Under the pieces are notes generated by a model, which saw only the letters and a program-made list of their open reading frames with translations, had not been told where the DNA came from and did no database searches. 42,585 nt of DNA from Chiloscyllium plagiosum (taxonomy: Eukaryota): the NCBI RefSeq assembly GCF_004010195.1, contig NC_057759.1, positions 1,931,069-1,973,653 of the forward strand. The letters run 5' to 3'. The position numbers and the translations under genes were made by a program. Below are positions 36,678-39,225 of this stretch, in pieces; positions within the stretch are counted from its first letter, which is position 1, and the number at the start of each line of letters is the position of its first letter.

Positions 36678-37396
36678 TGCAAGCGGGCATCAGAGCCGCC
36701 CCGCATTTGCCACGGGACTATGCCTACATCGGTAAAACTATAGGAATTCATTTTGTGTTTTAAACGGCAGCCACAGCTTAAACCCACAGAACTCAGCAGC
36801 TGCCGGTCCGGGAGATGGGAGTCAGAGGACAGATCAAATCCACACTCGGCCAGACACTAACCATAACTCATAGACCGAAACTCCGGAGCGAATTAATATG
36901 GAAACCTATCTCCTAATCAAATCAAGAGACTGAGTGAAACACACCCATATTCATCACTACAGAACCATCCTGACACAAAGGACAGGCATCCACCAGACAG
37001 GAACGAACAGACTAATACACACCAGCACCCCAAGGAAACAAAGGGGGGTGCTAGTCCCCAGCCCTCACAGAGAGAGACAAGCAGATATTTCCCGGACCCG
37101 TTCACATAATCCAAATAGCACCCTATTGTGTGTACACTGCAACTCTCCTGGGACCGCAGGAAACCCACCATTTGCACCTACTCCAGCGATGATGGGGAAC
37201 TATCATCCCATTCATACTCAAAATCCTCACATCCTGACAAGGAAAGGTATATAATATGTAGCAGCGTGCGGGAACAGCAGAACAGCCGAGATTCGGACCT
37301 TGGTTGGTCTCTGCCGGTGTTACTGTATCAATAAACGTTACCGATTGTTGAACCGCACTCTGGGCTCGGACTGATATCATTTCATCCGCTCTAACA
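36678..37396 (+). mobile_element. 3' LTR (719 bp) of an ERV-like element
   Basis: TG...CA ends with an imperfect inverted repeat (TGCAAGCGG / CCGCTCTAACA), TATATAA at 37248, AATAAA at 37330; direct repeat of 37935-38667. Confidence 0.9.
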
Positions 37397-37414
37397 GTGG
37401 GAAGGGATTCACTG

Positions 37415-37624
37415 ATTAGATTAGATTACAGTGTGGAAACAGGCCCTTCTGCTCAATAAGTCCACACCGACCCACCGAAGCGAAACCCACCCATACCCCT
37501 ACATTTACCCCTTACCTAACACTACGGGCAATTTAGCATGGCCAATTCACCTGACCCTGCACATCTTTGGACTGTGGGAGGAAACCGGAGCACCCGGAGG
37601 AAACCCACGCAGACACGGGGAGAC
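37415..37624 (-). mobile_element. 5'-truncated shark SINE
   Basis: ATTAGATTAGATTACAGTGTGGAAACAGGCCC..GGCAATTTAGCATGGCCAATTCACC..GCAGACACGGGGAGA. Confidence 0.85.
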
Positions 37625-39225
37625 ACCGGAGAGAGGCCATTCACGTGCTTGGTTCGTGGGAAAGGGTTCGCTTAATCATCTACTCTGCTGATCCACAAGC
37701 GGGTCCACACAGGTGAGAGGCCATTCACCTACTCTCTGTGCGGGAAGGGATTCATTGATTCTTCCAGCCTATGGACCTACCAGCGGGTTCACACGGGAGA
37801 GAAGCCGTTCATGTGCCCAGTATGTGGGAGGGGGGTTCACGGAGTCATCTAAACTCCTGATCCACCAGCGGGTCCACACCGGGGAGAAGCCTTCCACACA
37901 CCTTGGAGAGGCCATTCACTTGCTCCGTGTGTGGTGCAAGCGGGCATCAGAGCCGCCCCGCATTTGCCACGGGACTATGCCTACATTGGTAAAACTATAG
38001 GAATTCATTTTGTGTTTTAAACGGCAGCCGCAGCTTAAACCCACAGAAATCAGCAGCTGCCGGTCCGCCCACGTGACCGGAAGATGGGAGCCAGAGGACA
38101 GATCAAATCCACACTAGACCAGACACTAACCATGACTCATAGACCGAAACTCCCCCGCTAATTAATATGGAACCCCATCTCCTAATCAAATCAAGAGACT
38201 GACTGAAACACACCCAGATTCATCAATACAGAACCATCCTGACACAAAGGACAGGCATCGACCAGACAGGAACGAACAGACTAATACACACCAGCACCCC
38301 AAGGGAACAAAGGGGGGGGTGCTAGCCCCCAGCCCTCACAGAGAGAGACAAGCAGATAGTACCCGGACCCGTTTACATAATCCAAATAGCACCCTATTGT
38401 GTGTACACTGCAACTCACCTGGGACGGCAGGAAACCCACCATTTGCACCTACTCCAGCGATGATGGGGAACTATCATCCCATTCATACTCAAAATCCTCA
38501 CATCCTGACAAGGAAAGGTATATAATGTGTAGCAGCGTGCGGGAACAGCAGAACAGCCGAGATTCGGACCTTGGTTGGTCTCCGCCGGTGTTACAGTATC
38601 AATAAACGTTACCGATTGTTGAACCGCACTCTGGGCTCGGACTGATATCATTTCATCCGCTCTAACAGTGGGAAGGGATTCACTGATTCTTCCAGCCTAC
38701 AGACCCACCAGCGGATCCACACCGGGGAGAGGCCATTTACCTGCTCACAGTGTAGGAAGGCATTCAGTCATGTGGCCATCTGCGGACACACCAGCGGGTC
38801 CACACAGGAGAGAAGCCGTTCATGTGCCCCGTGTGTGGGAGGGGGTTCACTGAGTCATCTAAACTCCTGATCCACCAGTGGGTCCACACCGGGGACAAGC
38901 CTTTCATCTGCTCCATGTGCGGGAAGAGACTCAGTCAGATGGGACAGCTGCAGAGGCACCAGCGGGTTCACATGTCCCGTGTGCGGGAGGGGGGTTCACT
39001 CAGTCATCTACACTGCTGACCCACCAGCGGGTCCACACATGAGAGAAGCCTTTCAATTGCTCAGAGTGTGGGAAGGGATTCAGTCAGTTGGTTAACCTGC
39101 AGTCCCACCACCGCCCTCACACCGGGGAGCGGCTATTCAACTGTCCGAATGCAGGAAGGCTTTCCGTCTCATCAGCAACTTGCGGACACAGAAACCGTTC
39201 ACCTGCCTGAGTGCAGGAAGGGATT
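37625..39225 (+). pseudogene. Third C2H2 zinc-finger exon (inverted paralogue of the 990-2363 locus), interrupted by a solo LTR
   Basis: [44 protein letters not shown]..; collinear with the reverse complement of about 1100-1720. Confidence 0.85.
37935..38667 (+). mobile_element. Solo LTR (733 bp) with 4-bp TSD GTGG
   Basis: GTGG at 37931-37934 and 38668-38671; removing the LTR and one TSD restores tgc tcc gtg tgt ggg aag gga ttc (CSVCGKGF). Confidence 0.92.

Follow-up and report, generated by a model that had tools for sequence, protein, structure and literature searches.

Two long terminal repeats (LTRs) of one retroviral family lie close together in the 42,585-nt stretch of vertebrate DNA analysed here (the window), which is rich in repeats, and both are followed by the same zinc-finger coding sequence. 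How did one position in a repeated coding unit come to carry an LTR twice? A preliminary description proposed three explanations: duplication of one insertion together with its zinc-finger unit, followed by collapse of one copy to a solo LTR; side-by-side assembly of two alleles of a single locus, one a provirus and the other a solo LTR; or repeated targeting of the CGKGF motif of C2H2 arrays by the element. Targeting, if true, would be a direct interaction between a retrovirus and zinc-finger genes, disabling a gene class that may repress the retrovirus. No report of a retrovirus targeting C2H2 exons was found in the literature searched, mostly open-access papers.

The LTR pair and its insertion site

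The following features define the pair.

35793–36292, no strand: scaffold gap of 500 N, behind which lies either the remainder of provirus A or its truncation point
36293–36530, plus strand: broken env fragment, 86% identical to residues 253–316 of the Chiloscyllium gene model P0001 and continuing to residue 330 in another frame
36666–36675, plus strand: polypurine tract, 2 nt before LTR-A, recognised from sequence
36678–37396, plus strand: LTR-A, 3' LTR of a provirus, 719 nt, TG...CA ends, TATA-like box at 37248 and AATAAA at 37330
37397–37417, plus strand: shared 21-nt zinc-finger flank after LTR-A, identical in sequence to the flank of LTR-B
37931–37934, plus strand: left target-site duplication (TSD) of LTR-B, GTGG
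37935–38667, plus strand: LTR-B, solo LTR, 733 nt, TG...CA ends
38668–38671, plus strand: right TSD of LTR-B, GTGG

The two LTRs share one orientation and are separated by 538 nt, close to the ∼0.5 kb first described, and identical 21-nt flanks follow directly at 37397–37417 (A) and 38668–38688 (B). These are the only two exact copies of the 21-mer in the window; 6 matches were found within 3 mismatches, compared with 0 in 100 shuffles. Only 17 nt of A's flank are unambiguously host, because the last 4 nt overlap the start of a SINE (37414). No third copy of the LTR was found within the window.

The internal sequence reported upstream of the first copy consists of the polypurine tract and the broken env fragment. 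The 5' LTR and left flank of provirus A are out of sight since the contig begins at the 500-N gap; this contig, which carries both LTRs, spans just 4034 nt between the N gaps 35793–36292 and 40327–40684. LTR-B had been read as a solo LTR with GTGG TSDs, and GTGG is indeed present at both sides. Excising LTR-B and one GTGG leaves an open, complete C2H2 finger, which identifies it as a true solo LTR in a finger exon. Solo LTRs arise from proviruses by LTR-LTR recombination. In its single LTR between 4-nt duplications and its TG...CA ends LTR-B does not differ from a standard solo LTR, and TSDs of 4–6 nt are the norm for LTR elements in the available portion of PMC12440569. The features found are those of an LTR retroelement or endogenous retrovirus (ERV): TG...CA ends with promoter and poly(A) signals, a 4-nt TSD (B), and a polypurine tract and internal gene (A).

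Global alignment of A and B gave 28 substitutions (12 transitions and 16 transversions) in 719 aligned columns (p 0.039, K2P 0.040) and two indels of 12 nt and 2 nt, both gaps in LTR-A, in agreement with the 25–30 substitutions and 2 indels estimated by eye. The differences had also been placed mostly in the 5' two-thirds, and 25 of the 28 substitutions do fall in the first 493 of 733 columns, with 3 in the last 240. This clustering has a permutation p of 0.004 with the boundary picked post hoc, and p 0.049 in a best-250-column window test. CpG-type changes account for only 3 of the 28 substitutions, though each LTR retains 27–29 CpG. The 12-nt stretch of LTR-B that is missing from LTR-A (window position 36807) includes an E-box-like motif, CACGTG; this stretch is frequent among the copies of a related shark.

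Flanks of the LTR family in a related shark

Targeting predicts recurrent zinc-finger flanks at other copies of the family, and the preliminary description had proposed that these be collected. Three raw-read runs and one contig set (X2) from one related shark, 4 of 21 listed runs, were mapped to 36293–37432 at 88% likeness. Reads 90–95% alike made up 758/1421, 712/1302 and 668/1266 in the three raw-read runs, and only 31, 24 and 13 reads were at least 99% alike. Read depth was ∼165–245 over most LTR bins (49–89 in one variable bin) and 55–95 over most internal bins. The LTR family is thus abundant in the relative, with a depth of ∼200 in the LTR from 1934 Mb of read, roughly ∼350–450 LTR copies if the genome has the 3.4–3.8 Gb listed for Chiloscyllium, an assumed size.

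Past the LTR end (bin 37395–37432), depth in the three runs was 17.6, 16.9 and 15.5. Loose read ends at the right end of the LTR numbered 123, 119 and 113 at 37396 and 28, 37 and 34 at 37397, with an agreement of 0.42–0.48. At the left end (36678) there were 76, 90 and 67 such reads; their flanks agreed at 0.37–0.41 and were not zinc-finger-like. X2 contigs contributed 16 left and 14 right ends (agreement 0.42 and 0.45). Among the 24 of 181 loose ends listed, those inside the element agreed at 0.92–0.98, compared with 0.37–0.48 at the LTR ends. The right-end set includes 5' LTRs that read into internal sequence, whereas the left-end set represents host flank only. As a conservative upper bound, 8.9%, 7.6% and 7.2% of reads run through into the zinc-finger flank at the right end, or 4–5% when the depth at 37390 is used.

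Low depth past the LTR and heterogeneous flanks at both ends indicate that strong targeting is absent in the related shark; in none of the three runs did most family copies carry one flank at one base. Repeated targeting of the CGKGF motif is therefore not upheld there, read-through at other copies being at most 7–9%. The proposed comparison of flanks gives a two-part answer: their heterogeneity speaks against strong targeting in the relative's reads, but a weak enrichment in C2H2 exons, below ∼5–9% of copies, is compatible with them. A narrower form of targeting would have a shark retrovirus, or a subfamily of it in the window's species, prefer CGKGF codons of C2H2 arrays, the two LTRs being independent insertions and the relative's flanks belonging to other subfamilies or swamping a targeted minority below ∼9%. 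We regard this as very improbable. The same base was struck twice, the U3-concentrated, transversion-rich LTR differences resemble two virus variants, few derived sites are common to A and B (4 of the 17 listed), and a preference below ∼5–9% of copies would fit the reads; however, at least 91% of right-end reads in the three runs do not enter the finger flank, flanks vary at both ends, and only 19–24% of right loose ends begin with G. Moreover, the two flanks are identical, whereas separate hits on a generic CGKGF motif should differ in flank; the entire paralogue at 111–2050 is empty, and so is the finger of the insertion-site type at 37740. The result is a useful negative, in that the same base of a repeat being hit twice does not show targeting until flanks have been read across the family.

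The low-agreement consensus of the left flank has the same last 8 letters in all three runs, ending in ATAG, and the right-flank consensus of the X2 contigs starts with the reverse complement of these 8 letters. These shared flank ends, which GTGG fits poorly, may stem from amplification of one locus or from a target preference that is palindromic but weak. An LTR variant without ∼74 nt of U3 (36933–37008) occurs in all three raw-read runs (7, 12 and 2 reads). One X2 contig joint, 36485–37408, has only 21 letters at its short side and was regarded as unreliable. The exact LTR-end pattern had 0 matches in metagenome contigs.

Zinc-finger array and origin of the pair

The LTRs are embedded in a decayed C2H2 array, which has an inverted counterpart near the start of the window.

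37414–37623, presumably minus strand: SINE splitting the finger after LTR-A, 84% identical over 221 nt to 15580–15790, with four more copies in the window
37623–37897, plus strand: degenerate C2H2 run a2–a4, between the SINE and the junction before LTR-B
37894–37897, plus strand: rearrangement junction, recognised by comparison with the paralogue at 1455–1490 and with linkers
38668–39420, plus strand: degenerate C2H2 run b1–b8 after LTR-B, with the right TSD and the shared 21 nt at its start, and with stops and frame changes
111–2050, minus strand: inverted paralogue without LTRs, covering the array and the sequence downstream (fingers labelled p), 87.7% identical over 1003 nt to 39343–40326 and 80.7% over 544 columns to 38668–39190

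Stops and frame changes make the array a pseudogene today. The SINE, which we take to be of a shark type and in minus orientation, has no visible flanking duplication. Between it and LTR-B lies an LTR-free finger of the insertion-site type (a3, at 37740) with 2 mismatches in the 21 nt and 86% identity to b1 over 64 nt. At the junction, which lies 37 nt before LTR-B, the sequence runs through a4 into the beginning of a further finger and then returns to an inter-finger linker; a 4-nt microhomology is inferred there. Finger pairs a4/p7, a4/b3 and a2/p5 are identical at 101/106, 98/106 and 99/108 positions. These matches and the junction near LTR-B indicate several rounds of duplication and rearrangement of the array. 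Downstream of A the fingers are paralogues different in type and order from those downstream of B, the best block reaching 81.7% identity and a4 versus b3 92%. In all, the window holds 25 C2H2 linker motifs. The two decayed arrays with their downstream sequence, 111–2050 (minus) and 37623–40326 (plus), form an inverted pair ∼37 kb apart with arms 86–95% identical, and a third, more distant C2H2 array lies at ∼17450–18250 (minus).

We consider it probable that an ERV integrated once in a C2H2 finger, duplicating 4 nt, and that this insertion was later copied with the zinc-finger unit. Among the three explanations first proposed, duplication with the ZNF unit and collapse of one copy to a solo LTR gives the best fit. 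The process would have begun when the element integrated once, at an unremarkable site that by chance was a zinc-finger exon. A tandem or segmental duplication of the zinc-finger unit would then have carried the provirus along, and LTR-LTR recombination would have collapsed copy B to the solo LTR. Finally, a deletion marked by the SINE may have fused the right flank of A, at 21 nt past its LTR, with an upstream linker of B's array; such a deletion would account for both the dissimilarity of a2–a4 to the fingers after B and the spacing of just 538 nt.

Several observations favour this course of events. The heterogeneous flanks of the family in the related shark favour a single insertion. Shared descent is favoured by flanks that are identical, not merely similar, among 25 linker-marked fingers, with the 21-mer nowhere else in the window. 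Duplication is what the array itself shows repeatedly, in the inverted paralogue, the a4/b3 and a2/p5 pairs and the junction 37 nt before LTR-B. In addition, divergence in the flanking fingers (a4/b3, 8/106) is not significantly different from that of the LTRs (28/719; Fisher p 0.12), which is compatible with duplication, although a4 is nearer to the LTR-free p7 and A's left junction is unseen. Since a4 is nearer p7 than b3, a2–a4 and b1–b3 are not simply two halves of one recent duplication, and it would take the proposed SINE-marked deletion to explain this. Against the single insertion stands the shortness of the directly comparable flank, just 17–21 nt, with A's left flank behind the gap. 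The differences between the LTRs are also uneven, with 16 of 28 being transversions and 3 of 28 of CpG type, which is not the even decay expected from two copies of one insertion.

Comparison of A and B with the relative's reads bears on the same question. Among 40 of 377 variant sites listed, 17 LTR sites could be compared, and at 13 of them B matches the reads and A differs. At the other 4, all within 37115–37390 (the 3' 40% of the LTR), A and B agree against the reads, and this favours a common origin; the small share of such sites, set beside the 13 at which B equals the relative, appears to speak against it. All 11 listed sites at 36773–37103 separate A from B. The main rival to a duplicated insertion arises here, namely a mosaic LTR-A. 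Ectopic LTR-LTR recombination or gene conversion would have joined the 5' part and internal sequence of a different family provirus to a 3' part and 21-nt flank derived from a copy of the zinc-finger insertion. The last 240 columns contain only 3 of the 28 differences (p 0.004 with a post hoc boundary), the 4 shared sites and the 11 separating ones sit in different parts of the LTR, and satellite rather than zinc-finger array lies left of the N gap. However, variation in R-U5 may simply be lower, the 4 shared sites, taken from the 40 of 377 variant sites listed, may reflect differences between species, and the right junction would still have to exist in two copies. A mosaic origin, which would likewise start from one integration into a finger, is unlikely but deserves to be weighed.

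Assembly error could also have produced the arrangement, in two ways. Separate real loci may have been joined inside the 719-nt LTR or the 210-nt SINE, in which case the spacing or the link between env and flank would be unreal. The contig is indeed short (4034 nt), repeat-filled and enclosed by two N gaps, and LTR copies of this family number some hundreds in the relative; against this, there would even so have to be two LTRs differing by 3.9% and two separate right junctions, and the 84-nt finger repeat keeps its register across the join that follows the SINE. Such a chimera is improbable. Least probable of all is co-assembly, in which two alleles of a single locus, one with the provirus and one with the solo LTR, would have been placed in tandem. 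Same orientation, same site and a short contig beside a gap would suit this account, but the LTR divergence of 0.039 is some 20 times as large as the epaulette shark's mean nucleotide diversity, given as 0.002 in the accessible part of PMC10587355. Alleles would also share their downstream fingers, whereas those after A and B differ in type and order. Co-assembly, the second of the original proposals, is thus a poor fit for LTRs 3.9% apart with different paralogues downstream.

A duplicated insertion has a precedent in young mouse KRAB-zinc-finger (KZFP) clusters, where ERV copies were multiplied by segmental duplication according to the sections of PMC12575710 available, and this precedent favours duplication here. 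As in those clusters, the shark ERV lies inside a repeatedly duplicated C2H2 region and copies would be gained by duplication, not new integration; chimeric elements at breakpoints are a further likeness. Unlike the mouse clusters, the shark locus has no visible KRAB, the insertion lies within the finger exon itself, and the array is decayed. The scale also differs, with a few kb seen here versus Mb in mouse, on the same partial source. Most likely the locus is an ordinary case, a shark ERV insertion multiplied by duplication of a zinc-finger cluster, a process known at scale in mice.

A rough age of ∼90 million years follows from the K2P of 0.040, only if the differences are neutral and arose after insertion, at an assumed rate of 2.2e-10 per site per year taken from an extract of PMC4422223. 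The same extract gives LTR divergences of 0.024–0.033 for elephant-shark ERVs of SnRV-like and epsilon-like lineages. With 0.040 near that range, the present element resembles them in LTR divergence, as an old cartilaginous-fish ERV.

The envelope family and neighbouring repeats

The env fragment of provirus A is 81–94% identical to five Chiloscyllium bamboo shark gene models (5 of 5 matches), which points to a shark as host. The fragment is damaged by a frame change near 36468–36484 and an internal deletion at ∼36519–36530, and the related shark's reads continue differently at each side of the latter (loose ends, agreement 0.92–0.98). Gene model P0001 begins with a sequence like the C-terminus of an integrase and runs into env; an integrase reached in two search steps from P0001 matches foamy-virus integrase best (E 2e-22), ahead of Ty3 (4e-12). 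The pol of the provirus is absent from the window. Searches for a linked pol returned P0001 as the sole match from P0021, two short integrase pieces only from P0042, one 28% match (L001) from P0060 in metagenomes, and none from P0061 in viral contigs.

A homology search found 41 representatives at E≤0.001. The ten that were looked up come from sharks, a skate and the frog Mantella (16-member cluster). Alignment A1 comprises 21 of 45 collected proteins and leaves out P0041 (a bacterial adhesin), P0028, P0044 and short fragments. P0044, a distant member of the family, has an immunoglobulin V-set match (E 1e-5, just under the cut-off). Pfam gave no match at cut-off for the window env fragment or for P0001–P0005. 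By sequence, P0001 had 0 matches in PDB and the A1 profile had 7 (best E 0.18, none viral); a sequence-level match of the env family to an F protein was found in neither PDB nor Pfam.

Structure prediction was carried out for P0006, an env relative that is 63% identical to the window fragment over 63 aa. The model, built from 21 sequences, is of low confidence (pLDDT 52.5; 222 of 673 residues at 70 or above). Searched against PDB, it had 102 matches at E≤0.001, and all of the 42 listed were paramyxovirus or pneumovirus F (best E 1e-7), with TM-scores of 0.17–0.25 by query length. Matches among viral models were Mononegavirales-type glycoproteins and baculovirus F, and those in the Atlas were Baculo_F, Gypsy env and Fusion_gly clusters at 0.92–0.95. 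The env family is accordingly predicted from this model to have a fold like that of paramyxovirus and pneumovirus F. An F-like env family across sharks, skate and frog would bear on the origins of retroviral envelopes. No report of an F-like env in elasmobranch ERVs was found in the literature searched, mostly open-access papers and without Repbase; the available text of bioRxiv 10.1101/2023.10.26.564294 defers its vertebrate analysis to another publication.

The predicted F-like fold in a relative of this env recalls the Env of lokiretroviruses, described in the consulted portion of PMC7947760 as having a signal peptide, basic cleavage site, fusion peptide and coiled coil. In that portion of the survey (Wang and Han), 0 of 6 cartilaginous-fish genomes were positive, two Chiloscyllium among them. 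The lokiretrovirus lineage is defined by its reverse transcriptase (sister to canonical retroviruses, with tether and RNase H), whereas the shark element is known here from env. It is not assigned to the lokiretroviruses, though its Env type, as modelled, matches.

Two further elements lie left of the N gap.

33330–34625: LINE fragment, presumably of CR1 type, with a 412-aa open frame (RVT_1, E 5e-36)
∼32040–35790: satellite of 17/34 nt, enclosing the LINE fragment

Elsewhere in the window, a tandem direct repeat of ∼120 nt at 41296–41545 is possibly an assembly duplication, and a 26–28-nt minisatellite occupies 11590–12130.
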